Origin: Spirochaetales bacterium
GTDB taxonomy: Bacteria; Spirochaetota; Spirochaetia; SZUA-6; RPPD01
NCBI GenBank assembly: GCA_016934415.1
Contig: JAFGSW010000039.1
Span: 4,224 to 68,223 of the forward strand
DNA length: 64,000 bases
Direction of reading: 5' to 3'
Every line of letters begins with the position of its first letter. Position 1 is the first letter of the stretch. The notes beneath the pieces were generated by a model that was given only the letters and a program-made list of their open reading frames with translations, did not search any database and was not told where the DNA came from. Shown here in pieces: positions 1,190 to 62,282 of the stretch. Both the position numbers and the translations under genes were made by a program.

Positions 1190-1380
1190 AGTGAACCACG
1201 GATTTACGCGGATAAGACGGATAATCACGGATAAGGTAGGGAGCAGGGAGAAAATACAAGCGCATTTATATTTCGTCATGACATCCTTTTTTTTTCATTC
1301 CCTTGTTCTCTGCATTTATTTCCAATTCTCTTCCCTTTCCTATCCGTGTCATCGGCTGCATCCGTGTCATCCGTGGTTCC
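1190..1380. repeat. intergenic inverted-repeat element, CACGGAT(AA) family
   Basis: Left arm holds three ACGGATAA units, the centre is AT-rich, and the right arm carries ATCCGTG units. The right arm encodes the aminotransferase C-terminus. Confidence 0.6.
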
Positions 1381-2665
1381 CTATCTCCTCCGCCGCGGCG
1401 AAGATCTCCTTGAACATCTCCTCCAGGTCCTCCTCGTCGACCGAGGCGAAGCTCACGCGGAGGAGATCCGGTCCGAGGGCGATGACGCCGACGCCCCGTT
1501 CCTTGAGGAGCCGCTCGCGCAGGGCGGGGGCGTCGACGCCGTCGGTGCGGAAGGCGACGAAATACCCCGAATTGAAGGGCAGGGGACGGAGCCGGGCGGA
1601 CGGGGAGCGTTCGAGAATCGCCTTCACCCTCCGATACCGCCGCTCCAGTTTCCGGAAGGCCTCCCGCTTCTCTTCCTTGTACGCCTGGTTCCCGAGGAGC
1701 CGGACGAGCAGGCTTTGCGCCGGCATCGAGGCGGACGACACCGAGGTGCGGACGGCGGCGAGGCATTTCTGCTCCAGGGCGTCATAGTGTTCCCGCGCCA
1801 GCCCTTTGGACGCCAGGGTGATGAAGCCGATCCTGAACCCCCAGGCGAAATCCTCCTTGGTGGCGCCGTCGACCTTGCAGGCCAGGATGTTCTCATGCAG
1901 GCCGGCCAGGCGCGCGAACAGGGACTGGCGAAAAAGGCCGTCTTCGTAATAAAGCCCGAAATAGGCGTCGTCGACGATGACGAGGAGCCTCCGTCCCCGC
2001 CGGGCGGCGGTCAGGAGCACGTGTATCAGTTGTTCTGTTTCTTCATTATATAAAGAGTATCCCGTCGGGTTGTGGGGAAAATTGAGAATGAGAATCGTCT
2101 TCCCCGGCGCGGCCGCGTCCGAAAGACGCCTCTCGATTTCCGAAACGTTGAATTTCATGTCCGCGCCGAAGAGGCGAAACGTCGACCAGGCGGCGCCTTT
2201 TTTTATTTTAAAGATGAGCTCGTAATTTTCCCAGGCCGGTTCCGCGCAGAGGAGCGTATCGCCTTCGTCCGTGAAGAGGTCGGCGGCCACCGCCAGGCCG
2301 TGGGTGACGCCCGCGGTGACCAGGGGCAGCGTGGAGGCGACGCCCCCGAGGTCGGGATTTTTTTCGATGTGTTCCCGGCGCCAGATACGGCGCAACTCGG
2401 GGATCCCGCCCGTGGGCGCGTAGTCGACGCATTCCGCCGGGCTCAAACCCCGCCACGCGGCACCCAGCGAGGGGAGCAGGAACGGCGCGTTCTTTTCCTT
2501 GGCCACCCCGGCCGTGGCGTTGAAGCGCGGCTTCGCCCGGCCCGCTTCCTGCGCCTGGGCGGTGATTCCCCTGGGGAAATAGAGCATTCGGCCCTGTTTC
2601 GACAGAAGGGACTCGACGATCGTGCCCTGAAAATGGCGGTTGAGGTCCTCGGCGAGGGGATGCAT
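1367..2665 (-). CDS. PLP-dependent aminotransferase class I/II
   Basis: 432-aa ORF with NFPHNPTGY-type motif and length typical of the family. Confidence 0.8.
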   Translation of the reverse strand: MHPLAEDLNRHFQGTIVESLLSKQGRMLYFPRGITAQAQEAGRAKPRFNATAGVAKEKNAPFLLPSLGAAWRGLSPAECVDYAPTGGIPELRRIWRREHIEKNPDLGGVASTLPLVTAGVTHGLAVAADLFTDEGDTLLCAEPAWENYELIFKIKKGAAWSTFRLFGADMKFNVSEIERRLSDAAAPGKTILILNFPHNPTGYSLYNEETEQLIHVLLTAARRGRRLLVIVDDAYFGLYYEDGLFRQSLFARLAGLHENILACKVDGATKEDFAWGFRIGFITLASKGLAREHYDALEQKCLAAVRTSVSSASMPAQSLLVRLLGNQAYKEEKREAFRKLERRYRRVKAILERSPSARLRPLPFNSGYFVAFRTDGVDAPALRERLLKERGVGVIALGPDLLRVSFASVDEEDLEEMFKEIFAAAEEIGNHG

Positions 2666-11339: not shown

Positions 11340-12210
11340 GATCAGGGCCGTGCTGGAGAAACACGGGCTCGCCCTCAAAAAACGATTCGGGCAGAATTTT
11401 CTCGTCAACCGCCACGCGCGTGAACGGATCGCCGGGCTGCTCGAGGCGGGACGCGACGATCTTGTCTGGGAGATCGGGCCGGGGCTCGGCGCCATGACCG
11501 GGCTCCTCCTCGAGCGCGCGCGACGGGTCCTGGCCTTCGAGATCGACCGCGGCCTGGTGCGCGCGCTCCGAGAGCTTTTTCCAGACCGCCCCTCGCTTGA
11601 GATCATCGAGGGGGACGCGCTCGACACCATGGGACCGGCGGGGGAGAAGCGCGGGGCGCCAAACCGTATCCTGGGCAACCTGCCGTACTCGAGCGCTTCG
11701 CGCATCATCGCCTTTTTCATCGAGCGGGAGATCGGGGCGCAAAAAATCGTCGTCACCGTGCAGAAGGACCTGGCGCTGCGCATGCGCGCCTCGCCCGGCG
11801 AAAAGATCTATTCCTCGTTTTCGGTTCTGACCCAATCGTTCTTCGACGTCCGCCTTGAATTCGACCTCAAGGGCGGGAACTTTTTCCCGCGTCCCGAAGT
11901 GGACTCCTCCGTCGTGTCGCTCGTCCCGGCCTCCCGGCTCCCGCCGGGACCCGGCCGCGCGGTCTTCTTCCGGCTCATCCGGCTCGCCTTCGGCTCCCGG
12001 CGCAAGACGCTCAACAACAATCTGTTCAAGTCCGGCGCCTTCTCCCCCGAAGAGCTTACGGCGATGCGCGCCTTCTGGGAGCGGCGGGAGTTGAGCCCGA
12101 ACGCCCGCGCCGAGGACCTGGCGCCGGAGGTCTATCGCGATTTAGCCCTCACTCTGGCGGGGATTCACTCGGGAGAGGGAACCACGGATGGGCACGGATT
12201 GGACGGATAA
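11317..12210 (+). CDS. rsmA: 16S rRNA (adenine1518/1519-N6)-dimethyltransferase
   Basis: FGQNFL, EIGPGLGAMT and NLPYSSAS motifs. The C-terminal TTDGHGLDG residues are encoded by a CACGGAT repeat arm. Confidence 0.85.
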   Translation: MNYDSPAEIRAVLEKHGLALKKRFGQNFLVNRHARERIAGLLEAGRDDLVWEIGPGLGAMTGLLLERARRVLAFEIDRGLVRALRELFPDRPSLEIIEGDALDTMGPAGEKRGAPNRILGNLPYSSASRIIAFFIEREIGAQKIVVTVQKDLALRMRASPGEKIYSSFSVLTQSFFDVRLEFDLKGGNFFPRPEVDSSVVSLVPASRLPPGPGRAVFFRLIRLAFGSRRKTLNNNLFKSGAFSPEELTAMRAFWERRELSPNARAEDLAPEVYRDLALTLAGIHSGEGTTDGHGLDG

Positions 12211-12368
12211 CACGGATAGGGAATGGGTAAAAAGTTATTCGGTGAAAAAAACTATATTCGGCCTTTTTATATTTTTTTAAAATATAACATGAATTACGAT
12301 GTTCTTTTTTGTTTCCTCTTCTCCACATCCGTGTGATCCGTCCGATCCGTGTTATCCGTGGTTCTCTT
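12181..12368. repeat. intergenic inverted-repeat element, CACGGAT family
   Basis: Arms cacggatgggcacggattggacggataacacggat and atccgtgtgatccgtccgatccgtgttatccgtgg; the left arm encodes the rsmA C-terminus. Confidence 0.6.
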
Positions 12369-42320: not shown

Positions 42321-42734
42321 CGAATAAAGCCCGGAAGAGGCGGCGGCGGATTCCTCCGGGAAAAAACCGGAGGCTGACGCCGCTCGCGCCGGGGGAATAA
42401 GGCATTTCATCTTCAGCTCGGTCGGCGCCGCCGATATCTTTCTCGCCTTCCAATGATTTGGAGAAGCCTCGGCTTTTATTTTCACCGGACTTTCTAAAAC
42501 CATTTATCATCGTGAACCGAAACCAATAAGATCTTCCCGCAGCCGCGTCTCGGCTTCGCTCGACGAACGCCTTTTCTTCTTTTCAGCGCGGGCGAGACGC
42601 CCGCCCTACCTAGCCGTGGTTCCCTCTCCCCCGGGAAGGGCACCCGCGCTTTACACTCCTCCCGCGAGATGCTACCATCCGCTAAACCGGTCACGGAACG
42701 GCGGGTTCCACTTCGATCGAATAAGGTTCGGATA

Positions 42735-44000
42735 ATGGCGCAAAACAACGGAAACCTCGTGCGGCGGAATATCTTTTTCCAATCCCTCGATTCGGGCATC
42801 TTCATGTCAGGGATCGTGTTTTTCAACCAGATGACCATCATGATCGTGTTCATCCAGCAGCTCTACGATTCCGCGCTCATCGTAAGTCTCGTGCCGGCGC
42901 TTTTCATGATCGGCTATAACATCCCGGGCCTGTTCACGACCGGATTCGCGGAGCGGTCGGCCTTCCGCAAGAAATTCATCGCCCTGGGCGGCTTCATCCA
43001 GCGGCTGTTCGTGCTCTGCATGGTCCTGTCGGTCTTCCTCCTCCCGTTCGTCGGGCCCCGCGCCACCGCCCTCATCGTCCTGTTCTTCTACCTCGGCTTC
43101 TCCTTCATGGGCGGCGTGTACAATCCCGCCTGGATCGACTTCTGCGCCAAGACCATTCCCGTCAATTACCGGGCGCGGACCAATGCCGCCCGCTCTCTGA
43201 TCGGCGGGCTGGGGGGCATTGCGGCGCCATTGCTCATCGATTACCTTCTCAATAATTTTTCCTTTCCCGGCAATTACCAGCTCACGATATTTTGCGGTTT
43301 CCTCCTTCTCTTTCTCTCCTTCTCGGCCTTTCTCATGATCAGGGAAACGGAGCCCTCGCCGCCGGTGGCCCATAAGAGTTTCGGCAAATTCCTGCGGTCG
43401 TTGGGAGAGGTCCTGAAAAAGGACCGCAACTTCGTGCGTTTTCTCCTTACGCAGATTCTCTTGAGCGTCTCCGAGTGCGGGGCGGCGTTTTACGCCTTTT
43501 TCGCGACGAAATACCTGTTCGTGCGCACCGCTTGGGTCGTGTGGTACACGCTTTGGTACAATGTCGGTTTCGGGCTCTCCGGGATCGCGCTCGGATTCAT
43601 CGGGGACAAGCTGGGGAACCTGAACGTCCTGCGGATCGGGGCGTTCGGCTGCTTCCTGGGCCTCCTGCTCGTGATCCTGTTCCCGAATCCGGCTACCATC
43701 AGCATCGTTTTTATCATTGTCGGGATCAATTACAATGCCCGTCTCAACAGCTTCCAGGTGTTCATCACCGAATTCGGGGACGACCAAAGCAGAATCCGCT
43801 ATTCGGCGCTCGCCACCTCCATCGGCGCTTCCGCCTTCGGCCTCATGCCCCTTGTGGGGGGCATCCTGCTCGACGTTTTCCACGTCGATTTTGTGGCGCT
43901 GTTTGTCGTCGGAGCGGTCTGCGCCCTGCTCGCGTTCGTCTCCTACCTGTTCTTCGTGAAGGATCCGCGGTCGTACAAGGCGCCGGTGCACAACGCCTGA
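42735..44000 (+). CDS. MFS transporter
   Basis: 12 TM helices. Confidence 0.7.
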   Translation: MAQNNGNLVRRNIFFQSLDSGIFMSGIVFFNQMTIMIVFIQQLYDSALIVSLVPALFMIGYNIPGLFTTGFAERSAFRKKFIALGGFIQRLFVLCMVLSVFLLPFVGPRATALIVLFFYLGFSFMGGVYNPAWIDFCAKTIPVNYRARTNAARSLIGGLGGIAAPLLIDYLLNNFSFPGNYQLTIFCGFLLLFLSFSAFLMIRETEPSPPVAHKSFGKFLRSLGEVLKKDRNFVRFLLTQILLSVSECGAAFYAFFATKYLFVRTAWVVWYTLWYNVGFGLSGIALGFIGDKLGNLNVLRIGAFGCFLGLLLVILFPNPATISIVFIIVGINYNARLNSFQVFITEFGDDQSRIRYSALATSIGASAFGLMPLVGGILLDVFHVDFVALFVVGAVCALLAFVSYLFFVKDPRSYKAPVHNA

Positions 44001-44383
44001 GGAAGAGAACCACCCTTCGGCTCGCGGAGAAAACGACTCCAACATAGACGCGGTTCGGTCCGCCGCCGGAAACTGCGTTGCGAGGTGCGCTCAGGGCAGG
44101 CTCCTGACACGGCTGGGTAGTGCGGGCGTCCCGCCCGCACTGAAGAGTGAAAAACCACGGATCAAACGCGGATGTACGCGGGTAATGAAGGAAGAGGAAA
44201 AGACAAAGACTTGCGAACACCATTTCGATTACAATGATGTCGATGGAATAACGTACTGCCGATAGATCATCTCCGCAACTTTTTGTATATTCTCAACTAC
44301 ATACTTTCGTTACTCAGACGCCGGCGGGACATTGCCGGTGAACGGCTCTATGAAATACTTGTAGAGACGACGGATGTGAGGAT

Positions 44384-45784: not shown

Positions 45785-45807
45785 CTACGAAGAAGAATAA
45801 GTCGATA

Positions 45808-45945
45808 AGGAAACCAGGAAACCAGGAAAAAAGGCAAGCAGGAAGGGAGAAAGGGAGAGAGAGGAAGAAAAAAATGAAAATAAAAATGCCTTTTTCTGTT
45901 TTTCTTTGTCTTTTTTCTTTTCCTGGTTTCCTGGCTTCCTTATTG
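45808..45945. repeat. intergenic inverted-repeat element, GGAAACCAGG family (leuC-leuD spacer)
   Basis: ggaaaccaggaaaccagg .. AT-rich centre .. cctggtttcctggcttcc. Confidence 0.6.
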
Positions 45946-46595: not shown

Positions 46596-46596
46596 A

Positions 46597-46736
46597 GGGG
46601 AGGAGAACCACGGATTGGCGCGGATAAGACGGATGGCACGGATGGGAGAAGAGGCGGAATAAATAGAATGGGTTATTTTTTCCGGAAAGATCTTCATTTC
46701 CTTCCTGTGCTTCGTTCCTCTTCGTGTCCTCTTCCT
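46597..46736. repeat. inverted-repeat element (leuD-ilvD spacer); left arm GGGGAGGAGAACCACGGAT
   Basis: Purine arm, AT-rich centre and pyrimidine arm. Confidence 0.55.
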
Positions 46737-46804
46737 AAACGGTTTGGGAAAATACCGTGTTGGCTTAAGTATGTTTGAAAAAAAACGAGAAACGGGAGGC
46801 AATC

Positions 46805-48481
46805 ATGGCGGAACAGCTGAACCGGCGCAGCCGGGAAATGACGGAAGGCTTGTCCAGGACCGCAAACCGCGCCATGCTCCGCGCGGTCGGGTTCAAAGAC
46901 AAGGATTTCACCAAGCCGATCATCGGCCTGGCCAGCGCGGGGAGCGAAGTCTCGCCCTGCAATTACCATCTCAACGAGCTGGCCGAGTGGGCCAAGGAGC
47001 CGCTTCGCAAGCGGGGCGGCGTGCCGCTCCAGTTCAACACCTTCGTGGTGACGGACGGTGAGGCGATGGGCCACGAGGGGATGAAGTGCTCGCTTCCGAG
47101 CCGCGACACGATCGCGGACGTGATCGAGCTGGTGGCGCGCGGCCACAAAATGGACGCCCTCTTCGGCCTGGGCGGCTGCGATAAGACCATCCCCGGCACG
47201 GTGATGGCCATGGCCCGCCTCAACCTGCCCTCGATTTTCCTCTACGGCGGCACGATCCTGCCCGGGAAATACCGGGGCCGGGACGTGGACATCGTCAGCG
47301 CCTTCGAGGCCGTCGGCGCCGCCGGACGCGGGATCATGAGCGAGGAGGAGCGGCACGGCATCGAGTGCGCCGCCTGCCCGGGCCCCGGCGCCTGCGGCGG
47401 GATGTACACCGCCAACACCATGGCTTCCGCGATGGTCGCCATCGGCATGGCGCCGCCGGGAAACGCCTCCCTCCCCGCGGTGGACAGGGCAAAGCGCGCC
47501 GAAATGGGGCGGGCCGCCGGTTTTCTCACCGGGCTCATCATAAAGAACATCAGTCCGCGGGACATCATGACCCGCCGGGCCTTCGAGAACGCGATCCGGA
47601 CGGTGATGGCGCTCGGCGGCTCCACCAATGCCGTCCTCCACCTCCTCGCCCTGGCCAGGGAGGCGGAGGCGCCGCTCACGGTGGACGATTTCAATCCCTT
47701 CGCCGAAACCACGCCCATCCTCTGCGACATGAAACCGGCCGGGCGCTACGTCATGAACGACCTGCACCGGGTCGGCGGGGTGGAGGCGGTGATGAAGATG
47801 CTCCTCGACCGGGGACTCCTCCACGGCGACTGCCTGACGGTCACGGGCCGGACGCTCGCGGAGAACCTGGCCGGCGTGCGCGTGTCCCTGGAGGGGCAGG
47901 ACGTCATCCATCCGTTCGAGCGTCCGGTGAGGGCGGCGGGACCCATCTTCATCCTCAGGGGCAACCTGGCGGAGGAGGGCGCCGTCTTGAAGACCTGCGG
48001 CATTGAGAAAGCGGAGCATTCAGGCCCGGCCCGGGTGTTCGAGCGGGAGGAGGAGGCGCTGGCGGCGATCCTGGACGGGAAGATCCGCAAGGGCGACACC
48101 ATCGTTATCCGCTACGAGGGGCCCAAGGGCGGGCCGGGGATGCGCGAGATGCTCGCCCCCACCGCGGCGATAGCGGGCGCGGGGCTCCTCAATGACGTCG
48201 CCCTGATCACCGACGGCCGCTTCTCCGGAGGAAGCCACGGCATTCTCGTGGGGCACATCGCGCCCGAGGCGCAGGTCGGAGGGCTCATCGCCTTCCTCAA
48301 GGACGGCGATATGATCACCATCAGCGCCTCCCGCAAGCTCCTCCAGGCCGACGTGAGCGACGAGGAAATCGCCCGGCGCAAGGCCGGCTGGAAGCCCCGG
48401 GAGATCGCCTACACCCACGGCGCGCTCTACAAGTACGCGAAATTGGTGTCCTCGGCGAGCCGCGGCGCGGTCACCAGTTGA
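46805..48481 (+). CDS. ilvD: dihydroxy-acid dehydratase
   Basis: CDKTIPG and SGGSHG motifs. Confidence 0.95.
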
Positions 48482-48487
48482 ACGCGG

Positions 48488-48506
48488 GATCCGTGGTTCT
48501 CCTCCC
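48488..48506. repeat. lone arm ATCCGTGGTTCTCCTCCCC, exact reverse complement of 46597-46615
   Basis: 19 of 19 positions match in inverted orientation, with ilvD lying between the two arms. Confidence 0.6.
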
Positions 48507-48585
48507 CTCTTTTTCACGCAGACCCCGGAAAACCCATGGCACATATCCCCGACTTTATGTATATTGACTGACAGAGGGTAGGATT

Positions 48586-49837: not shown

Positions 49838-50036
49838 AGGAAGAGAAAATAACTACGGATGGGACGCGGATAGGACGCGGATAAAGAGAATAGAGAAAGA
49901 GCAAAGAGCAAAGAGAATAAATTGTTCTATATTTCTTTTTCTTTCTTGCCTTTATTCTTCATCCGCGTCCTCACGCTGGAAGCTGCGCTGCGCGATCCCG
50001 CGTTCATCCGTAGTTCCATATCTTCCTCATCCGCGC
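49838..50036. repeat. intergenic inverted-repeat element, ACGGAT family (htrA-uvrB spacer)
   Basis: ctacggatgggacgcggataggacgcggat .. atcccgcgttcatccgtag. Confidence 0.6.
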
Positions 50037-52047: not shown

Positions 52048-52085
52048 GATCAACTCCCCGGGGAATTTATCAGGAGACTATGAAG

Positions 52086-52197
52086 GACAGGAAACCAGGA
52101 AAAGAGGGGGAAAAAAAGAAAGAGAGAGAAGGGGAAACAGATTTTCTTTTACTTTTTATCTCTTTCTCTTTTCCGGTTTCCTTTCCTCCTGGCTTCC
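52086..52197. repeat. intergenic inverted-repeat element, GGAAACCAGG family (downstream of uvrB)
   Basis: ggaaaccaggaaaagag .. ctcttttccggtttcc. Confidence 0.55.
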
Positions 52198-54222: not shown

Positions 54223-54270
54223 GAGATGGGGGAAGATGAGGGAGATGGGGAGGGGAAGAAGACATGAATG
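54222..54270. repeat. GGGGAAGATGAGG-family purine-rich arm, left flank of the AT-rich DUF4332 island
   Basis: Its reverse-complement partner lies at 55014-55106. Confidence 0.5.
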
Positions 54271-55013: not shown

Positions 55014-55106
55014 TTTTTCCCTCCTCTCCATCTTCCCCATCTTCTTAATCTTCCCCATCCGTAGTTCCCTCACCTCCTCATTTTCTTCATCCGCAGTTTC
55101 TCTCAC
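55014..55106. repeat. pyrimidine-rich arm (ccatcttccccatcttcttaatcttccccatccgtagtt), right flank of the DUF4332 island
   Basis: Inverted relative to 54222-54270; a similar string occurs at 59921-59950. Confidence 0.5.
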
Positions 55107-55115
55107 CCGGGCCCG

Positions 55116-56057
55116 CTATTTCTTCATGCCGCCGAGGAGCTCCATGAGCTCGCCGCGGGTGCGGATCTCCATTTTTTGGAAAATGTGGTGGACGTGGCTC
55201 TTCACGGTCGGGATGGAGATGAAGAGCCGGGAGCCGATTTCGCGGTAGCTCCGGCGCCCGATGAGATACTCCGCCACCTCGATTTCGCGTTCGGTGAGGC
55301 CGCGTTGCCGGAAGAGGGTCCGGTCGACCGGCGCCTCCGCGACGGGATGCGCCTGGATGAGCACGAGGAGCAGAAAGCGGAATGTGAGCACGCTCGTGAC
55401 GCACAGCAGATAATAGATGACGGGCCAATTGACGCCGAAGAGTGCGGACAGGATATTCATCCCCCAGACGCCTTCCTCGATCGCGATGAGCGGGGCGAAG
55501 GCGAAAAAAACGACGACGGTGACGATGAGGGTGCTTTTGAGATTGCGGTTGACGATTCTTTTCAGGTAGCGGACCGTGATATAGGCCAGGACCACCAGCT
55601 GCACGCCCTTGAGAAGGCCGAGCCCCAGCTCGAGCCGCCGCCACTCTTCCCCGTCGACGGCGACGGCGAAGAGGAAGAAGAAAAGGATCGAGAACGAGAT
55701 AAAGAAATGAGCGATCCTTTTTTTCATGGTGAAGCGGACCTGCATGAGCCCGTAGAAGGACCGCTGCAGAAGGAAGAGCACGCAGGATTTCACGGCGTAG
55801 AGCGCGATGAGCCAGACGATTTCCGGCGTCGGACCCAGGGTGACGCCGGCGATCGTCATATAGACGACCACGGCGTAGAGCAGGACCATGAGGAAATTGC
55901 CGAGACTGACCAGGGCGAGGTGGCGATAGGTTGAGTCCCCGGTCCGGCGGAACAGGATGAACGCCATGAGCACCGAGCTCAGGCTCAACACGAAACTGGC
56001 GATGCTCACGAAATACGTGACGTGGATCACGGTCCCTCCGGTCGAGGGCGGCGGCAC
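55116..56057 (-). CDS. LuxR-family regulator with N-terminal multi-TM sensor domain
   Basis: C-terminal LTEREIEVAEYL..PTVKSHVHHIF helix-turn-helix; start uncertain. Confidence 0.65.
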   Translation of the reverse strand: MPPPSTGGTVIHVTYFVSIASFVLSLSSVLMAFILFRRTGDSTYRHLALVSLGNFLMVLLYAVVVYMTIAGVTLGPTPEIVWLIALYAVKSCVLFLLQRSFYGLMQVRFTMKKRIAHFFISFSILFFFLFAVAVDGEEWRRLELGLGLLKGVQLVVLAYITVRYLKRIVNRNLKSTLIVTVVVFFAFAPLIAIEEGVWGMNILSALFGVNWPVIYYLLCVTSVLTFRFLLLVLIQAHPVAEAPVDRTLFRQRGLTEREIEVAEYLIGRRSYREIGSRLFISIPTVKSHVHHIFQKMEIRTRGELMELLGGMKK

Positions 56058-56261
56058 GCCGCGAAGCTGCGGAAAATCGAGGAGAAAGCGGAGTGGGACG
56101 CTTCATGGCCTCAAGACCCGGTACGCCTCATTTTATCCCGAACGGGGGAGCGTGTCCAGATTTCCGGATGGGGGAAGATGAGGAATTCCGGGAGGAAAAG
56201 AGTGTTTCTCTTCCGATAACCGAAACTCATGCTTTCAGCGCAATTTATCCGACCCGATCCG

Positions 56262-56342
56262 CTGATTTCCCCTTTCCGCTTCCATCTATAATGCATGACC
56301 GTGTATACAAATGCACTCTATGGCGGGCGGGACGCCCGCCAT
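56262..56342. repeat. ~80-bp conserved intergenic repeat ending in GC hairpin ATGGCGGGCGGGACGCCCGCCAT (copy A)
   Basis: Roughly 85% identical to 59836-59916. Confidence 0.6.
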
Positions 56343-56375
56343 GCCGTAGTTTCCCGCAGCCCGGCCGAACGGCGG

Positions 56376-57506
56376 TTATTTTTCGATCCCCTCTTCCTCT
56401 TTTTGAATCTGATGGGCCGTCCAGTAATAGCCGTATTCCTGCCACACTTTCACTCTGTTGCGGTGTTCTCCCTTTTCCTGAAATTCAACGACCCAGTATC
56501 CCCCCGGGCCTTTCCGGAGAACGCCCGGCCCTTTCAGGAAAGGAGACCAGCAGGGAAACTTACTTTCTTCCTTGACCTTGTTCACTTCCCAGGCCGCGAT
56601 CAATTGGTTGTCCGCCTTGCCGTCCGGGAGTGTGAAATCGCCCTGCACCTCAAGATGGATTTTCGCCCCCTCGTAATCGTTGAGTTTCTGCTTCTCGACC
56701 CGCCCCCGGATTTTAATGTGGCGCAGCTCCGGTCCGTTTTTGAGATGCGGGGCGTCGTACTGCAGGCCGCTCGTCATTTTGCGTTTGGTGAAATAATCGA
56801 TCGGTCCGCTCGCCATTTTCGCGCTGGGGACGCCGGGGACGAACGCGCTGATCATTCCCCGGATCTCGGAGACCAGCTCGTCGAGGCCTTCGGTATTCCG
56901 GTCCAGGTCGTATTCAATGGTGCCTTCGCCCTCGATCTCGTCCTTTTCATTTATGTAGAGGAAAAATTTGGTCGCGTGCTTGACCGTCAGGGTGAGGTTT
57001 CGATTGCGAAATCGGACTTCCTCGCCGGCTCCCCCTCCGATCCAATTGCCCCTGAGGGAAGCGGCGGATTCGGACGGGCCGCCTTTTTTATCGCCCTGCC
57101 GATCGTCCGGCGGATTTTCACCCTGCCGGTTCCCCTGCGCGGGGGGGCTTTGGATGGAGAAATACCCGTCTGAAAAATCCGAGGCGGAGCCCCGTACGAT
57201 TTTTATGCGGTAATCGTCTCCGGCCGGCAGATCCGACGACACCTTCCAGAGAAAAACGCCGGAGGAGGCGTCCACGGTCCCGATTTTTTTCTTCAGGGCG
57301 GAACCCTTGAACAGCTCTATCCCGACCTGCCCTGAAAGGCTTCCCCCCCAGGCGACGGTTTGCAGCGATCCTTTATACCAGATCTCTCCGCCGTTCGGCT
57401 GCAGGATTTCCGGCGAGGCCCCTTCGGACTGGCCGTACATCGTCCCGCCCGACGCGAAGAGCGCCGCCGCCAATAAGACGGCGTGGGTAATTTTCACTCT
57501 CATCAC
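56376..57506 (-). CDS. secreted protein with Kre9/GPI-anchored-like N-terminal domain
   Basis: Signal peptide; GEIWYKG..VAW pattern. Confidence 0.4.
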   Translation of the reverse strand: MMRVKITHAVLLAAALFASGGTMYGQSEGASPEILQPNGGEIWYKGSLQTVAWGGSLSGQVGIELFKGSALKKKIGTVDASSGVFLWKVSSDLPAGDDYRIKIVRGSASDFSDGYFSIQSPPAQGNRQGENPPDDRQGDKKGGPSESAASLRGNWIGGGAGEEVRFRNRNLTLTVKHATKFFLYINEKDEIEGEGTIEYDLDRNTEGLDELVSEIRGMISAFVPGVPSAKMASGPIDYFTKRKMTSGLQYDAPHLKNGPELRHIKIRGRVEKQKLNDYEGAKIHLEVQGDFTLPDGKADNQLIAAWEVNKVKEESKFPCWSPFLKGPGVLRKGPGGYWVVEFQEKGEHRNRVKVWQEYGYYWTAHQIQKEEEGIEK

Positions 57507-57577
57507 ATCCCCCTTTTTTCAATATGAGCGGGCGCTCCGCGTTCGCGGCTCCGCTCCGGTTGCTTTGTATTCGCGCC

Positions 57578-58102
57578 CTACTTGTTGGCTTCTTCCACGG
57601 CTTTTATGAGTTTGTCTTGATTGGCCAGGATAAGCTGTTTCTCCCCTTCGCTGACTCCCGCGTCCTTAAAGAGCTCTTCATACTGGTCCGCGATCATCTT
57701 TTTCATGTGCGCCGATTGCCCTTTCATGTTTTGCGAAGCGACCAACCACGGAACGAGGGTCCATATTTTGGCGTGTACGTCCATGAACAATTCCGGATCG
57801 TCCCAGCCGTGCGCCTGCAGCAGAGCGACCAACTCGCCGCCCCCCAGCTGGGCCGCGCCGATCGTGTTGACGTTGTCCCCGATGTCCTTCGCCTTGTGCG
57901 CGAAGGGGGGCAGGGTCTCCAGGTATCTGTCCAGGAGCTCCTGGGTGAGGGTGACGGCGCCGGCCTGGGACTGATCGGCGGAATTTTCTTCGCCGTTCAT
58001 TGTGTCGTGCGTCCGGGTTTCATCGGCGTCGCTTCGTTTGGCGCAGGCGCTGTAGGCGAATACGAGGAGAATAACGGCAATCCGGAAAAAATGCTTTTTC
58101 AT
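57578..58102 (-). CDS. lipoprotein, hypothetical
   Basis: Lipobox VFAYSAC. Confidence 0.45.
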   Translation of the reverse strand: MKKHFFRIAVILLVFAYSACAKRSDADETRTHDTMNGEENSADQSQAGAVTLTQELLDRYLETLPPFAHKAKDIGDNVNTIGAAQLGGGELVALLQAHGWDDPELFMDVHAKIWTLVPWLVASQNMKGQSAHMKKMIADQYEELFKDAGVSEGEKQLILANQDKLIKAVEEANK

Positions 58103-58366
58103 GAGACCTCCCTTCGGCAAAAAAGAAATAAAAGAAAGAAGCACCGGCCGCCCGACATCAGGCGCGTTCCCGGGAGGAAGCATATCCCGCGCCGACGGTC
58201 TCATGGCCCCATCTTTTTTCGCGTAAAAGTATAACACCGGCGCGGATGTTCAACAAGCGGGCGCCCGGGGGGGGTAGATGAGGGAAGATCAGGCGGTTTT
58301 GCCGAGCTTGCTCGGCAAAACTACCGGATAGGGAAGATGAGGAGGATGGGGGGTGCCGGGAAGACA

Positions 58367-59809
58367 TCAAAGCCTTTCGAGCGTCCTCTTGATATTGATC
58401 GAGCCGATACCTTCTTGGTCGCAGATCCGAAACCATTCTTCCTCGGTTATATGCTTGTGCGTCATGGAATGCACCAGATCGAATATTTCCAATTTGCGGC
58501 CCTCGCGCGTCAGCCGGGGGAACCGCTCCGGAACTACGTGCAGGTCCCATCCGCTTCGCGACAGCACCGCCGCGACGACCGTACCGAGGATTTCCGTGAC
58601 GTCCTCGTCGCACAACTCGGCTCCCACGGGGCATTCTTCCATCAGCGTCCAAACATAAGCATGGAGCTCCCGGCAGGTAATGTCCAGTCTCGTCAGGCCG
58701 CCGGTGAAATGTTTCGCCCTCTTTTCGAAAATGAACCGATAGGCTTTTTCCCCCGCTTCCTCCCATTTCAAGGGGATGATATTTTGAACCGAGCGGTGTT
58801 TGAATACCGCCGCGCAATCGTCTTCCAGCGCCGTCGTCATTTTTTCCAGGGGAACGGACGCCTCCCGCGCCGCGCCGCTTCCCGCCTCACCCTTCGCTTC
58901 CATCCTTGCTATTCTTTTCCCGAGCTCCGGATGAGACGAATACCGGCTTCCCTTGGGCTCCGGCATTCTTTCCGCAAGGCCGCACTCGCGGCCGTTTTGC
59001 AGGAAGCGACAGAAGCCTTCCAGGAACGGTGGAACGTATCCCCTCGCGAGCGCCGGAGAATAATACTTGTTCCAGTACGCCGCAAAGCGCTTCTGCACGC
59101 CGACGACGCTCCGCAAGGCGTCCGCCGCGCGCCGGCTTCCCGCATAACGGCAGGCGATCTCGTCGGCCACCGTTTCCTGCCGCCGCGAAACGGCGCTCGT
59201 CACAAGGCGGAACAATTTCGCGAAAAGGATGAAAATACCGTCGATGAGCTTCGTATTCCGCGTCAGCTGTTCTATAATATTTGAAAGCGAATTGTGAAGG
59301 GTGTAGATCGTCGGGCCCAGGGAGGTGTCCTTCCTCGAAAAGTGGCCGAGCTCGTGCGCGATGACCGCTCCCAGCTCCGGTCCCGGAAGCATAAGGATAA
59401 GCGGGACGCCGATTCCGAGAATGGTCTTTCCCCCGAAACCGGACATCGTGTCCCGTTTGCCGATCCACGCGTCCGGCTCCGGGAGGAGATAGATTTCCCG
59501 GGGCGCCTGCTGGCCGAGGTCTTCCGCGATGGCGGCCACCGCGGCCGATATCTCCCGATACCGATCTCCCCGGATCAGAATCCCGGGCGGGATGAACTTT
59601 TCTTTGCGGGGAAACATGGCGACAAGGATGGAGAACGCTCCGATGTAGCATATCCCGATGACGTAGAAATTAATGCGACCCAGTTCCAGCACCATGTAGA
59701 CAGGCAGCGCCATGAGTGCGACGACGACAAACAGCGTGAACGCGTAGAAAAAAACAAAAAGAAAGATCACCAGAAGCGCCCTGAGGGCGAATCCGAGCTT
59801 GTGCTTCAC
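58367..59809 (-). CDS. M48 family zinc metallopeptidase, membrane-anchored
   Basis: AHELGHF HExxH motif; GTG start. Confidence 0.75.
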   Translation of the reverse strand: MKHKLGFALRALLVIFLFVFFYAFTLFVVVALMALPVYMVLELGRINFYVIGICYIGAFSILVAMFPRKEKFIPPGILIRGDRYREISAAVAAIAEDLGQQAPREIYLLPEPDAWIGKRDTMSGFGGKTILGIGVPLILMLPGPELGAVIAHELGHFSRKDTSLGPTIYTLHNSLSNIIEQLTRNTKLIDGIFILFAKLFRLVTSAVSRRQETVADEIACRYAGSRRAADALRSVVGVQKRFAAYWNKYYSPALARGYVPPFLEGFCRFLQNGRECGLAERMPEPKGSRYSSHPELGKRIARMEAKGEAGSGAAREASVPLEKMTTALEDDCAAVFKHRSVQNIIPLKWEEAGEKAYRFIFEKRAKHFTGGLTRLDITCRELHAYVWTLMEECPVGAELCDEDVTEILGTVVAAVLSRSGWDLHVVPERFPRLTREGRKLEIFDLVHSMTHKHITEEEWFRICDQEGIGSINIKRTLERL

Positions 59810-59835
59810 TTAAATTTCCGCCTTTCCCCGACCTG

Positions 59836-59916
59836 CTGATTTTCTCTTTCCGCTTCTATCCATAATGCTTCATCTTGTATACGAATGCACTCTATGGCGG
59901 GCGGGATGCCCGCCAT
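59836..59916. repeat. ~80-bp conserved intergenic repeat ending in GC hairpin (copy B)
   Basis: Same orientation and a similar position upstream of a minus-strand gene. Confidence 0.6.
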
Positions 59917-59971
59917 TTCTCTATCTTCTTAATCTTCCCTATCCGTAGTTTTCAAAGCCCTCCCCGGAACG

Positions 59972-61192
59972 TCAGCGGTACGGTTTCTTCCGGAAGGACT
60001 CGTCACGGCGGCAGGCTTTCTCGTAGTACTCCCCGGCCGCGGCCTTGTCCCCCAGCTTGAATTTGGCCATACCAAGGTAATAGTCGCTCTCCGCGTCGTC
60101 GAAGCCCAGGCCGCGGGCCTTCATAACGTCCTGCAGGCCAGGGGCGGCGTCGCCCGCCTCTATCCTGGCCGCGCCGCGGTTATGGATCGCCAACAGCTCG
60201 TTCGGGTTCAACGCCAGGGCCGCGTCGCAGTCGGCGACGGCGCCCGAGTAGTCGCCGCTGAGCGTCTTGATATCGGCCCGGTTGACGAGATAGCCCGTCT
60301 CTTTCGGATCGAGCCTCACCGCGGCGTCCAGATCCGCCAGGGCGCCCGGGTAGTCGCCCCGGCTTCTCTTCAGGAGCGCGAGCGCTCCGTAGGGCGGCGC
60401 CGAGTGAGGATCGAGCTCGATCGATCGCCTGTAATCCATCTCCGCCCCCGCCGGGTCGTTGCAGCCTTCCTTCGCGACGCCCCGGTGAAAAAACCACTCC
60501 GCCCGTTTGCCGTCGAGGCGGATCGCCCGATTGAAATCCTCCAGCGCCGCCTCGTACCGTTCCTGCCGGTTCCGGCAGAGCCCGCGCAGGAAGTAAGCCA
60601 TCGGCTGGAAGGGATCGATTTCAAGCGACGTCGAATAGTCCTCAATGGCCTTGTCGTCCATCCGCAGGAGCCACTCGGCGATGCCGCGGTTGAAATGCCA
60701 TTCGGCGTCCCCCGGTTTGAGCGCGATGGCTTGGTTGAAATCCGCGAGGGCGGCCTCGTTGTCACCCAGCATTCCGGAACAGATCCCCCGACGGAAATAG
60801 ACCTTGGGGTCCTGCTTCGGGTTGAGCGAGATGCTTTTGGAGTAGTCGGCGATCGCGCCCTTGAGGTCGCCGAGCCCTTCCCTGGCGGCACCGCGGTTGT
60901 AATAATAGAAGTAAAAGTCCGGATCGAGCTCTATCGCCTTGTTGAAGTCTTCGAGGGCCGCTTTATCGTCGCCCGCCCATCCCTCCATGAGCCCCCGCCA
61001 GGAATAGGCGCGGGCGTCGCCCGGGTCGAGCTCGATGGCCCGGTTGAGATCGGCCAGGGCGCCTTCCCTGTCCGTGTCCATTTTCTCAATGGCCCGATCG
61101 ACGAAATCCTTGGCCGTCGTTTGGGCGGAAAGGAATCCGCCGGCCGCGAAAAAGAGCGCGGCTGCGCACAGGACCGGGAAAAATCTTTTCAT
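59972..61192 (-). CDS. secreted TPR repeat protein
   Basis: Signal peptide followed by more than 8 TPR units. Confidence 0.8.
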   Translation of the reverse strand: MKRFFPVLCAAALFFAAGGFLSAQTTAKDFVDRAIEKMDTDREGALADLNRAIELDPGDARAYSWRGLMEGWAGDDKAALEDFNKAIELDPDFYFYYYNRGAAREGLGDLKGAIADYSKSISLNPKQDPKVYFRRGICSGMLGDNEAALADFNQAIALKPGDAEWHFNRGIAEWLLRMDDKAIEDYSTSLEIDPFQPMAYFLRGLCRNRQERYEAALEDFNRAIRLDGKRAEWFFHRGVAKEGCNDPAGAEMDYRRSIELDPHSAPPYGALALLKRSRGDYPGALADLDAAVRLDPKETGYLVNRADIKTLSGDYSGAVADCDAALALNPNELLAIHNRGAARIEAGDAAPGLQDVMKARGLGFDDAESDYYLGMAKFKLGDKAAAGEYYEKACRRDESFRKKPYR

Positions 61193-61427: not shown

Positions 61428-62153
61428 TCATTTAAAAAGCGAGAATGATGCATGGTATTCGTCAAGCTCCCAATTGTGGGAGTTATAGTGGACATATTCC
61501 CTGATTTTATCCAATTCCCGGTCGTTCCGGATTATTCGGTCGTAGAATCGGGGTTGCCAAATCGGTGATCCGATGCGCACCGTGACGGCGGATTTGAAGC
61601 CGGCTACAAACGACGAAAAGGATTTCGGGGAACGATTCGCGATAGGGCACGATTTTTTGGAATCCGATTGTAGAGACGCACGGCCGTGCGTCTCTACGTT
61701 TTCCGGCTTATAAACGTGATCCCGGTTCACGCGAACATTCCGCGGGTCTTCGCGGCCATGTGTCCGTACAATTGTATCCCTGATAATCACGATCCCGTGC
61801 ACGTGATTGGGCATGACGCAATACGCGTCACAATCCAATTCCGCGCGGATCCCGAACGATTTCAACCATTCCGACTCGACGATTTCACCCGCCGGCGACA
61901 ATTGCATTCGCCCCCGGACGACGCCGCCCAGGAGACATTCCATGTTCCGGGTGCACAGGGTGATGAAATAATACCCGGGAGCGGAATAATCCCGGTTTTT
62001 CAACCGCGTCGAATCGATTCTGTATTTCGTTACATTCAAATTCCGGCTCACGGCATTCCCGCCTTTCCACGCATAAGGAAACCGCGGTTTCAGCCCGGTG
62101 AATTCAAATACACGTTCGCATCGGGGACAGGGTTTTGGGGAGTTAATTGGCAA
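61428..62153 (-). CDS. REP-associated tyrosine transposase (RAYT, IS200-like HuH); a REP palindrome lies inside the ORF
   Basis: YYFITLCT, MPNHVHGIVI (HuH), and FKSAVT..WQPRFYDRIIRN..YVHYNSHNWELD motifs. Confidence 0.7.
   Translation of the reverse strand: MPINSPKPCPRCERVFEFTGLKPRFPYAWKGGNAVSRNLNVTKYRIDSTRLKNRDYSAPGYYFITLCTRNMECLLGGVVRGRMQLSPAGEIVESEWLKSFGIRAELDCDAYCVMPNHVHGIVIIRDTIVRTHGREDPRNVRVNRDHVYKPENVETHGRASLQSDSKKSCPIANRSPKSFSSFVAGFKSAVTVRIGSPIWQPRFYDRIIRNDRELDKIREYVHYNSHNWELDEYHASFSLFK
61670..61697. repeat. REP palindrome GTAGAGACGCACGGCCGTGCGTCTCTAC (inside the RAYT ORF)
   Basis: 28-bp perfect palindrome. Confidence 0.7.
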
Positions 62154-62183
62154 CGGAAACCGGTTTTATTTGGGAATTGAATC

Positions 62184-62211
62184 GTAGAGACGCACGGCCG
62201 TGCGTCTCTAC
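62184..62211. repeat. REP palindrome GTAGAGACGCACGGCCGTGCGTCTCTAC
   Basis: Identical 28-mer with a conserved ggaatYSRaTYgtagag 5' flank. Confidence 0.7.
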
Positions 62212-62263
62212 GATACCGTCCAATACATTACTCCGGATTCGCACGTATATTTCGCAAAAAACC

Positions 62264-62282
62264 ACGGCCGTGCGTCTCTACG
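62264..62282. repeat. REP half-copy CACGGCCGTGCGTCTCTAC inside a ~78-bp tandem repeat unit
   Basis: Unit (REP ..ccgtccaata..tccgRa..atttcgcRaaaa) repeated 2.2 times across 62181-62340. Confidence 0.55.

Follow-up and report, generated by a model that had tools for sequence, protein, structure and literature searches.

Results

The window analysed in the present study is a stretch of 64 kb, and two of its intergenic gaps contain a copy of the same non-coding repeat. Copy 1 (56253-56342, minus strand) is found in the gap that separates a Kre9-like gene (stop at 56376) from a GerE/LuxR gene (start at 56030), 33 nt past the stop and 222 nt ahead of the start. For copy 2 (59827-59916, minus strand), the neighbours are a TPR gene (stop at 59972) and an M48 peptidase gene (GTG start at 59809), and the corresponding distances are 55 and 17 nt. 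All four flanking genes are encoded on the minus strand, in agreement with an earlier note on this DNA, which had placed both copies between the 3' end of one minus-strand gene and the start of the next, the LuxR regulator and the M48 peptidase, respectively.

The two copies are 87% identical over 90 nt without any gap and no third copy is present in the 64-kb window. The repeat is slightly longer than was first described (81 nt and about 85% identity), its left end being found 9 nt further out. When the intergenic regions of the window were compared by BLAST, this pair gave the strongest match (82 nt, 87.8%, E=1.3e-19), and the 40-mer GTATACRAATGCACTCTATGGCGGGCGGGAYGCCCGCCAT occurs twice in the window against 0.00 expected. 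Both ends of the repeat are sharp, local alignment of the flanks being no better than that of shuffled sequence. For the same reason, we rejected a segmental duplication extending into the M48 coding start, which had seemed plausible by eye. The copies differ at 12 positions, 11 of them in the first 57 nt and one in the hairpin loop. A small coding ORF was also rejected, since these differences show no codon-position bias (4/4/4) and the two copies have different reading frames.

Each copy is composed of a 67-nt tail (56253-56319 and 59827-59893) and a 23-nt hairpin (56320-56342 and 59894-59916). Both terminate in ATGGCGGGCGGGA(C/T)GCCCGCCAT, and the perfect hairpin that had been reported at this end was confirmed by DNA folding. 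In copy 1 it reads ATGGCGGGCG-TCC-CGCCCGCCAT, with a 10-bp stem (-13.2 kcal/mol as single-stranded DNA, z = -5.7), and in copy 2 it reads ATGGCGGGC-ATCCC-GCCCGCCAT, with a 9-bp stem (-11.7 kcal/mol, z = -4.7), the two differing in the loop only. Neither hairpin has a GTAG or GGAG head, and ACGGC-AT precedes it instead. The tail is arranged as two conserved blocks around a variable 9-nt stretch, with AATGC repeated 20 nt apart and a GTATAC palindrome. On the other side, the copy 1 hairpin is preceded at a distance of 1 nt by a AACTACGG motif (56344-56351, minus strand). At copy 2, a 34-nt block ending in AACTACGGAT (59917-59950, minus strand), which is 91-96% identical to 55033-55066, is situated between a AACTACGG-type motif and the hairpin. 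No target-site duplication was found, the flanks sharing no duplicated bases, and the 90-nt unit has no terminal inverted repeats, its ends being unrelated to each other; a MITE was rejected on these grounds. A REPIN with a decayed second REP in the tail was likewise rejected, since REP-like similarity in either orientation was not above the shuffled background.

The perfect hairpin GCGGGC-N5-GCCCGC occurs four times in the window (42588, 44122, 56323 and 59897) against 0.11 expected, and none of 100 shuffles reached four. The perfect cores at 42588 and 44122, besides those of the repeat, bear out the earlier remark that related hairpins occur elsewhere. They belong to a second subfamily, consisting of a minus-strand copy at 42582-42618 between a DtxR-like and an MFS gene (CCACGGCTAGGTAGG-GCGGGCGTCTCGCCCGC) and a plus-strand copy at 44108-44144 between the MFS and an aconitase-family gene (CACGGCTGGGTAGT-GCGGGCGTCCCGCCCGC-ACT). 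These two are 89% identical in inverted orientation, and both have a GTAG head (GGTAGG-hairpin on the minus strand at 42605-42613 and GGTAGT-hairpin at 44116). The window hairpins have perfect stems of 7-10 bp and loops of 3-5 nt, with DNA folding energies of -9.5 to -13.2 kcal/mol (z = -3.3 to -6.5). All four are situated between genes running the same way, three in the sense orientation and one (42588) antisense to both neighbouring genes. The window has no close inverted REP pair (REPIN), its sole inverted pair (42582 and 44144) being 1.5 kb apart. A search of the window with mismatches for sub-blocks of the repeat returned only the other two hairpins. A Logan contig that adds 3.3 kb to the window (L127) contained no further hairpin copies, and none of these hairpins was found in the relative L002 or in the syntenic relatives L004-L006. 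The sole RAYT-like ORF in the window (61431-62165) belongs to another RAYT clade and is flanked by a different palindrome.

Outside the window, a REP class distributed over many phyla, which has a GGAGC or GTAGC head in other genomes, most often takes the form of the 17-nt core GCGGGCG-TCC/TCT-CGCCCGC. When 185,579 species genomes were scanned with a pattern combining the hairpin and CCGTRG, at least 120 loci were obtained, among them loci of Actinomycetes, Chloroflexi, Planctomycetota, Verrucomicrobia, Kiritimatiellae, Acidobacteriota, Proteobacteria, Armatimonadetes and others. The loci listed hold 54 extra hairpin copies that were not selected by the pattern, and these mostly keep the GCTCC flank, which corresponds to the GGAGC head. 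In five of the 120 8-kb loci listed, with five different taxon labels, a Y1_Tnp/RAYT ORF has a hairpin at most 400 nt away, and in locus L008 the hairpins form an inverted pair on both sides of the RAYT ORF. Pairwise identity among the five RAYTs is 43-53%, against only 25-32% with the RAYT-like ORF of the window. Their profile matched 7,658 proteins at E<=1e-20, with source names such as 'REP-associated tyrosine transposase' or 'RayT'; no Spirochaete was present among the 120 listed. In the reverse test, three RAYTs of the clade were chosen without regard to the hairpin, and all three are flanked by hairpins with a stem that starts with GCGG(G/A)C. The GGAGC head is present in two of them (Poribacteria and Blastocatellia), and the Rhodocyclaceae RAYT has the exact 17-mer downstream with no clear head. 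Overall, head and stem (GGAGC + GCGG(G/A)C...) are nearly constant in many sampled genomes of at least eight phyla. In lower-GC genomes, the REP stem was seen to alter in a compensating way. True inverted doublets of this REP class occur in the fetched Chloroflexi and Poribacteria loci, and REPs are also found inside longer repeat units, namely 130-nt and 52-nt repeats in L100, a tandem of about 200 nt in L120 and a unit of about 92 nt in L107. No paper was found when the literature was searched with the letters of the hairpin.

For the tail, an exact-pattern scan with the hairpin plus 7 nt of tail gave no match in the genome, metagenome and viral collections, from which the window itself is absent, and a search of metagenomes with the two conserved blocks of the tail was likewise negative. 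Only two copies are known, the tail being unmatched elsewhere in the collections scanned, so that the word 'dispersed' describes these two copies and no others.

Discussion

Since its 17-nt core is identical to that of the many-phyla REP class, which flanks RAYT genes in other genomes, the hairpin is regarded here as a REP (repetitive extragenic palindrome). The explanation that we favour, with a probability of roughly 0.6, is that the 23-nt GC hairpin is a REP of the class moved by one RAYT (Y1/HUH) clade, and that the 90-nt repeat is a composite of this REP and a one-sided 67-nt extension, copied into two unrelated co-directional gaps. Such a unit would be akin to one mosaic unit of a BIME, or to half a REPIN with the partner REP missing. 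Single-strand transposition of the RAYT type may have produced the copies, or else recombination at REPs, and in either case one breakpoint would coincide with the hairpin foot. The earlier suggestion of a REP-like family distinct from the RAYT-associated REP was right in that the element is a REP and differs from the palindrome of the window RAYT, but the family is itself of the RAYT type and not RAYT-independent. The 67-nt tail makes up most of the repeat, and its function remains unexplained.

The main effect on the host would probably come from a stable stem-loop 33-55 nt past the stop codon of the upstream gene, which could shield the 3' end of the upstream mRNA or partly insulate that mRNA from the next gene. 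Judged from sequence, a REP hairpin at this position might incidentally terminate transcription without a U tract. It is improbable, in our opinion, that this effect is what preserves the hairpin, with or without its tail, the host keeping it to end or stabilise upstream transcripts (as a terminator lacking a U tract or as a barrier to 3' exonucleases) and spread by transposition being secondary. The predicted minimum free energy of about -27 to -28 kcal/mol for the RNA of the whole repeat, the -12 to -13 kcal/mol of the hairpin alone as DNA, and its sense orientation shortly after the stop codon are in keeping with such a role, and REPs have been reported to act so (PMC3733652). However, an intrinsic terminator was not recognised, as the GC stem is present and the U tract is not, the sense strand running on as AGAGTGCATT. 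A T-rich run follows the stem only on the antisense strand of copy 2, and this was the sole terminator-like call. In addition, the hairpin at 42588 is antisense to the genes on either side, no compensatory changes were seen, and in a predicted second hairpin the only difference within the stem region disrupts a base pair.

A small RNA gene or a cis-regulatory leader RNA would also give a conserved non-coding stretch with a stable hairpin at its end (plus strand) or beginning (minus strand), and a perfect plus-strand TATAAT is present in copy 1 (56287-56292). We consider this reading most improbable, because the TATAAT has no -35 partner and is CATAAT in copy 2, the folding z of the whole repeat is weak (-0.95 to -2.3), and no Rfam family was found. 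The window gave no Rfam hit at the gathering score, and around the two copies E<=10 returned only a 13-bit chance match outside the repeat. Two sequences are too few for covariation.

According to another explanation, the tail combines a regulator site with a promoter that an alternative sigma factor might recognise, so that the membrane-bound LuxR-type regulator and the M48 peptidase are controlled jointly, and the hairpin is the terminator of the upstream gene. Both copies stand upstream of a gene in the same orientation, the 162-nt gap before the M48 gene leaves no room for a promoter outside the repeat, and the tail has its conserved blocks, AATGC repeat and GTATAC palindrome. We nevertheless judge it unlikely. 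The sigma-70 scan (-35/-10 hexamers 16-18 nt apart) found no site in either copy on either strand, whereas a better promoter-like site, TGGACA-17-TAAAAT (56130-56158, minus strand, 10/12 positions), lies between copy 1 and the LuxR start. The distances to the start codons are unequal (17 nt and 222 nt), and an operator would not call for 87% identity along 90 nt and a boundary that coincides precisely with the REP foot. Furthermore, nothing similar was found upstream of the LuxR homologues (about 40% identical; L003-L006) or the M48 homologue (L002). The latter, the nearest M48 relative (53% identical), overlaps its upstream gene and has no such motifs. In L004-L006, which are syntenic (DUF445, SH3, UvrB, trypsin/PDZ and aconitase), neither the repeat nor the hairpin accompanies the LuxR homologues. 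The M48 and LuxR genes are not adjacent in the homologue loci of L002-L006, and the conserved tail blocks were unmatched in the metagenome scan. Consensus motifs for sigma-54, ECF and IHF, looked for by eye only, did not fit. The shared promoter or operator that had been put forward earlier was consequently not upheld, given the missing sigma-70-like hexamer pair, the unequal start distances and the silence of the homologues.

A combined form, in which REP and tail make up a portable cassette, the REP as insulator or terminator followed by a promoter/operator of a non-sigma-70 kind, and place the membrane-anchored LuxR-type regulator and the M48 membrane protease in one regulon, appears very unlikely. 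If it were true, it would hint at a signalling pair for regulated proteolysis that was assembled by a mobile repeat. A promoter in the tail, if there were one, would make the repeat a case of two genes rewired by a REP-linked cassette, a reading that has no support here. Our preference stays with the composite repeat carrying a REP, and we do not think that the hairpin acts by putting LuxR and M48 transcription under common control. For annotation, such hairpins should be labelled as REP elements and not as terminators or operators, and the 90-nt repeat as a composite repeat carrying a REP. The exact 17-mer REP core is recorded here in an uncultured and otherwise poorly sampled Spirochaetales genome. 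A by-product of the present study is one RAYT clade (more than 7,600 proteins, E<=1e-20) with a near-constant REP head and stem across at least eight phyla in many sampled genomes.

Among the known systems, MITEs and the Correia/ERIC-type elements resemble the repeat as non-coding intergenic copies of about 100 nt near gene starts, but they differ from it by the terminal inverted repeats and target-site duplication that it lacks. E. coli BIMEs and the pneumococcal BOX are similar in being intergenic modules that are variously recombined, as are the hairpin, the AACYACGG motif, the 34-nt block and the 67-nt tail here. There is no sequence relationship with them, however, and by our own reading the string closest to an IHF site, AATCAGCGGATCG, departs from it at two core positions. 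With REPINs the repeat shares a REP and a following conserved, spacer-like sequence copied as one unit, although the second inverted REP or its remnant is missing. A further comparison is with the GTAG-tagged REPs and their RAYTs (Nunvar 2010, PMC2817692; Di Nocera 2013, PMC3733652; Bertels and Rainey 2011, PMC3116915). Published surveys report such REPs from groups that include the PVC bacteria and Chloroflexi, placed for the most part after coding regions and between co-directional or converging genes (PMC3733652). REPs of this superfamily are characterised as palindromes of 20-40 bp that fold into a stable stem-loop, run to tens or hundreds of copies per genome and have GTAG, or a degenerate version of it, at one hairpin foot. 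In contrast to these, the two copies of the repeat are headless and have a conserved one-sided 67-nt extension, and the window has no RAYT matching this hairpin and no close inverted doublets. In common with them, the window hairpins are short, GC-rich, perfect palindromes, extragenic, multi-copy and placed between co-directional genes. Two of the four window copies carry the GTAG head, and in other phyla RAYT genes have this 17-nt core beside them. The layout of head and stem also resembles that of the Pseudomonas and Xanthomonas REPs (GTGGGAGC-GGGC.. and GTAGGAGC-GC..), which have been listed as GT(A/G)GGAGC plus a GC stem (PMC2817692).

Results

The two stretches that the earlier note had found to be similar proved to be a real repeat. 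The repeat finder reported them as a two-copy family of 90 nt with 87% identity (56253-56342 and 59827-59916), reaching 9 nt further left than first described, and the pair was the top match when the 41 intergenic regions of the window were compared with each other by BLAST (82 nt, 87.8%, E=1.3e-19). In pairwise alignment of wider regions, the identity begins at CCCGA and ends with the last base of the hairpin. Since neither the left nor the right flanks showed similarity above shuffled background in local alignment, the unit is about 90 nt long with sharp ends. It consists of a 23-nt GC hairpin and a 67-nt tail. Comparison of the copies gave 12 differences, of which 9 are transitions; 11 differences fall within the first 57 nt, and the remaining one is in the loop of the hairpin. 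Their 4/4/4 split over codon phases indicates that the module is not coding. No third copy or partial tail copy was found within the window. The window, which comes from an NCBI MAG titled 'Spirochaetales bacterium' (locus tags JXD23_), is also present in a Logan assembly of SRR13394437, and it was absent from the genome, metagenome and viral collections searched.

All genes around the module copies are on the minus strand. They encode a TPR protein (59972-61192), an M48 peptidase (58367-59809), an ORF of 219 aa with no assigned identity, a Kre9-like Ig-domain protein (56376-57506), a GerE/LuxR protein of 304 aa with a C-terminal GerE/LuxR helix-turn-helix (55116-56030) and a DUF4332 protein. 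The N-terminal part of the LuxR-type protein is long and hydrophobic, and its translation suggested several membrane helices by eye. The M48 metalloprotease (480 aa) is encoded 2.3 kb from this gene. A pair of protease and membrane-tethered regulator is conceivable; the two genes are unlinked in relatives, not being neighbours in the homologue loci compared.

The perfect hairpin GCGGGC-N5-GCCCGC occurs four times in the window (42588, 44122, 56323 and 59897) against 0.11 expected, and the copies folded as single-stranded DNA at -9.5 to -13.2 kcal/mol (z -3.3 to -6.5). The first two lie outside the modules, in the DtxR-like/MFS gap and the MFS/aconitase-family gap, where all the genes are on the plus strand. 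The classic GTAG head of a repetitive extragenic palindrome (REP) is carried by two copies (GGTAGT- at 44116; GGTAGG- at 42605-42613, minus strand). The two headed segments, 42582-42618(+) and 44108-44144(-), are 37 nt long, 89% identical and inverted on either side of a single MFS transporter gene (42669-44000). Both module hairpins are without the head and thus may be immobile derivatives. CCGTRG stands near the hairpin in three of the four copies.

The hairpin with a nearby CCGTRG was used as a pattern to scan a collection of 185,579 species genomes, and at least 120 loci matched. The taxa among the matches listed include Actinomycetes, Chloroflexi, Planctomycetota, Verrucomicrobia, Kiritimatiellae, Lentisphaerae, Acidobacteriota, Armatimonadetes and several proteobacterial classes. 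The 26-mer GCGGGCG(G/A)GACGCCCGCGCTCCGTGG was found repeatedly with unrelated flanks. GCTCC was mostly kept beside the stem in 54 extra hairpins of the fetched loci, which had not been selected by the pattern, giving G(G/T)AGC-GCGGGCG-TC(C/T)-CGCCCGC as the forward element. Copy numbers are high in some genomes (16 within 4 kb of locus L120, 8 in the Kiritimatiellae locus L125), and inverted pairs with a spacing of about 93 nt are numerous in one Chloroflexi MAG. REPs inside longer repeat units were common among the fetched loci (L100, L107, L120). REP hairpins also lie in frame within long ORFs of L125 (3927-7861) and of the deltaproteobacterial locus L038 (3443-7036), with peptides such as GGRDARPP, GETPALP and SAGVSPV, like published cases of REPs within genes; by its motifs, one of these ORFs resembles a DNA methylase.

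When all ORFs of the fetched loci were searched by jackhmmer, a REP-associated Y1/HUH transposase (RAYT) gene with hairpins at most 400 nt away was found in five loci with five different taxon labels; as a rough estimate of ours, 884 kb should contain about 0.2 RAYT genes at one per genome. In L125, an ORF with the HUH motif MPNHIHVL (Pfam Y1_Tnp, E=1.6e-9) is bracketed by hairpins, and in L008 the RAYT gene lies between two hairpins in inverted orientation. The five proteins are 43-53% identical among themselves; with the window's RAYT-like ORF they share only 25-32% identity. Their profile matched at least 7,658 proteins at E<=1e-20 among 8,000 candidates scored, with source names such as 'REP-associated tyrosine transposase' or 'REP element-mobilizing transposase RayT'. 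For the reverse test, three RAYTs of this clade were picked solely for their long contigs. The Poribacteria RAYT has GGGAGC-GCGGACA-TCT-TGTCCGC doublets on both sides, the Rhodocyclaceae RAYT has an exact GCGGGCGTCCCGCCCGC downstream, and the Blastocatellia RAYT is flanked by GGAGC-GCGGGCTGCCAGCCCGC. The Poribacteria REPs (L128, 1926-1990 and 2591-2650) keep the GGGAGC head and TCT loop, and their stem GCGGACA/TGTCCGC is a compensating change relative to GCGGGCG/CGCCCGC in a genome lower in GC (51%). From these associations in other genomes, the hairpin is probably a REP belonging to a widespread RAYT clade.

The RAYT-like ORF of the window (61431-62165, minus strand; Y1_Tnp E=0.008; motifs MPNHVH and WQPRFYD) contains a copy of its own palindrome, GTAGAGACGCACGGCCGTGCGTCTCTAC, within the frame (61670-61697), with further copies just upstream (62181-62214 and 62263-62282). 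This palindrome is a second REP class, of a different RAYT clade. The suggestion of a REP-like family distinct from the RAYT-associated REP therefore holds in part: the hairpin is a REP and differs from GTAGAGACGCACGGCCGTGCGTCTCTAC, but its class flanks RAYTs of another clade in other genomes.

The tail is an unexplained lineage-specific extension. It had no match in any fetched locus or in the metagenome collection, and Rfam gave no match for the module. Whole-module folding was weakly better than that of shuffled sequence (z -0.95 to -2.3), and one copy difference disrupts a base pair in the second stem of the predicted fold. Neither terminal inverted repeats nor a target-site duplication was seen for the tail. 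No trace of a second, inverted REP was seen in it, and the module was thus rejected as an inverted REP doublet (REPIN). No module, hairpin or similar upstream sequence was present at the LuxR homologues (about 40% identity; three syntenic JGI contigs and one Logan contig) or at the M48 homologue (53% identity).

The earlier note had also proposed a shared promoter/operator module. The M48 gap does leave no space for a promoter outside the module, but the balance of evidence is against this reading. On the minus strand the hairpin opens each module 33 or 55 nt past the upstream stop codon, and the distances from module end to the next start are unequal (222 nt for LuxR, 17 nt for M48). Consensus elements are missing: the promoter scan found no sigma-70-like hexamer pair in the tail on either strand. 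The same scan gave LuxR a separate promoter-like site, TGGACA-17-TAAAAT at 56158-56130, between copy 1 and its start, and the boundary of the repeat is set by the REP.

Other repeats were observed in the window. Arrays of the form (purine-rich)-AACCACGGAT-N3-6-CGGAT-N4-5-CGGAT lie at 1193-1234(+), 1342-1382(-), 12179-12220(+), 12327-12367(-), 44153-44185(+), 46605-46646(+), 49851-49885(+) and 50008(-), often as inverted pairs 150-190 nt apart with an AT-rich spacer. For AACYRCGG, 26 occurrences were counted where 11.2 were expected. Three of the four hairpins also have the CACGG motif of the arrays ahead of the REP head; the form of this motif in the REP of other phyla is CCACGGAGC. A perfect 20-nt inverted pair (GGGGAGGAGAACCACGGAT..; 46596-46615(+) and 48489-48508(-)) brackets ilvD (46775-48481), which looks inserted or relocated, as Aconitase_C and the trypsin/PDZ gene have no gene between them in the syntenic relative L004 (9196-11353). 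A 34-nt pyrimidine-rich block (TTCYCYATCTTCTTAATCTTCCCYATCCGTAGTT) at 55033-55066 and 59917-59950 is 91-96% identical, the latter copy directly adjoining the hairpin of module copy 2, with related blocks, purine-rich, at 54225, 56167 and 58326. The 27-nt family D2 of Fur-box-like AT-rich palindromes (TATTGAAAATGGTTATCATTTTCAATA; 15318, 19681, 24095, 24188, 28114, 28629 and 54652), with complementarity between sites of up to 90%, probably represents operators of a metal regulon. The short tandem motif GGAAACCAGGAAACCAGG (45791-45834, 45918-45943(-) and 52072-52107) is present in both orientations between the genes of the aconitase subunits and recurs upstream of the SH3/DUF445 genes.

Discussion

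Overall, the finding is an ordinary one: the repeat is real, and its conspicuous hairpin is a known kind of element (REP/RAYT). On one side, the 90-nt unit is bounded precisely by the REP foot. For an IS200/IS605-type HUH transposase, the foot of the REP would be the expected cut site. In the proposed mechanism, a REP with a one-sided extension would have been copied as one piece to two intergenic sites, either through RAYT-type single-strand transposition or through recombination at REPs. As with other REPs, its likely effect would be a stable stem-loop shortly past the upstream gene's stop codon; this could protect the 3' end there or lower read-through into M48 and LuxR.

GTAG-tagged REPs are known from Proteobacteria, Cyanobacteria, Chloroflexi and the PVC group, and some families are common to distant organisms (PMC3733652). 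Most are located downstream of coding regions, in gaps whose neighbouring genes have the same direction or converge, and RAYT genes have them on their flanks (PMC3733652). In Pseudomonas and Xanthomonas, REPs of the form GT(A/G)GGAGC followed by a GC stem have been tabulated (PMC2817692). Reading the hairpin as a REP agrees with these published descriptions (PMC3733652, PMC2817692).
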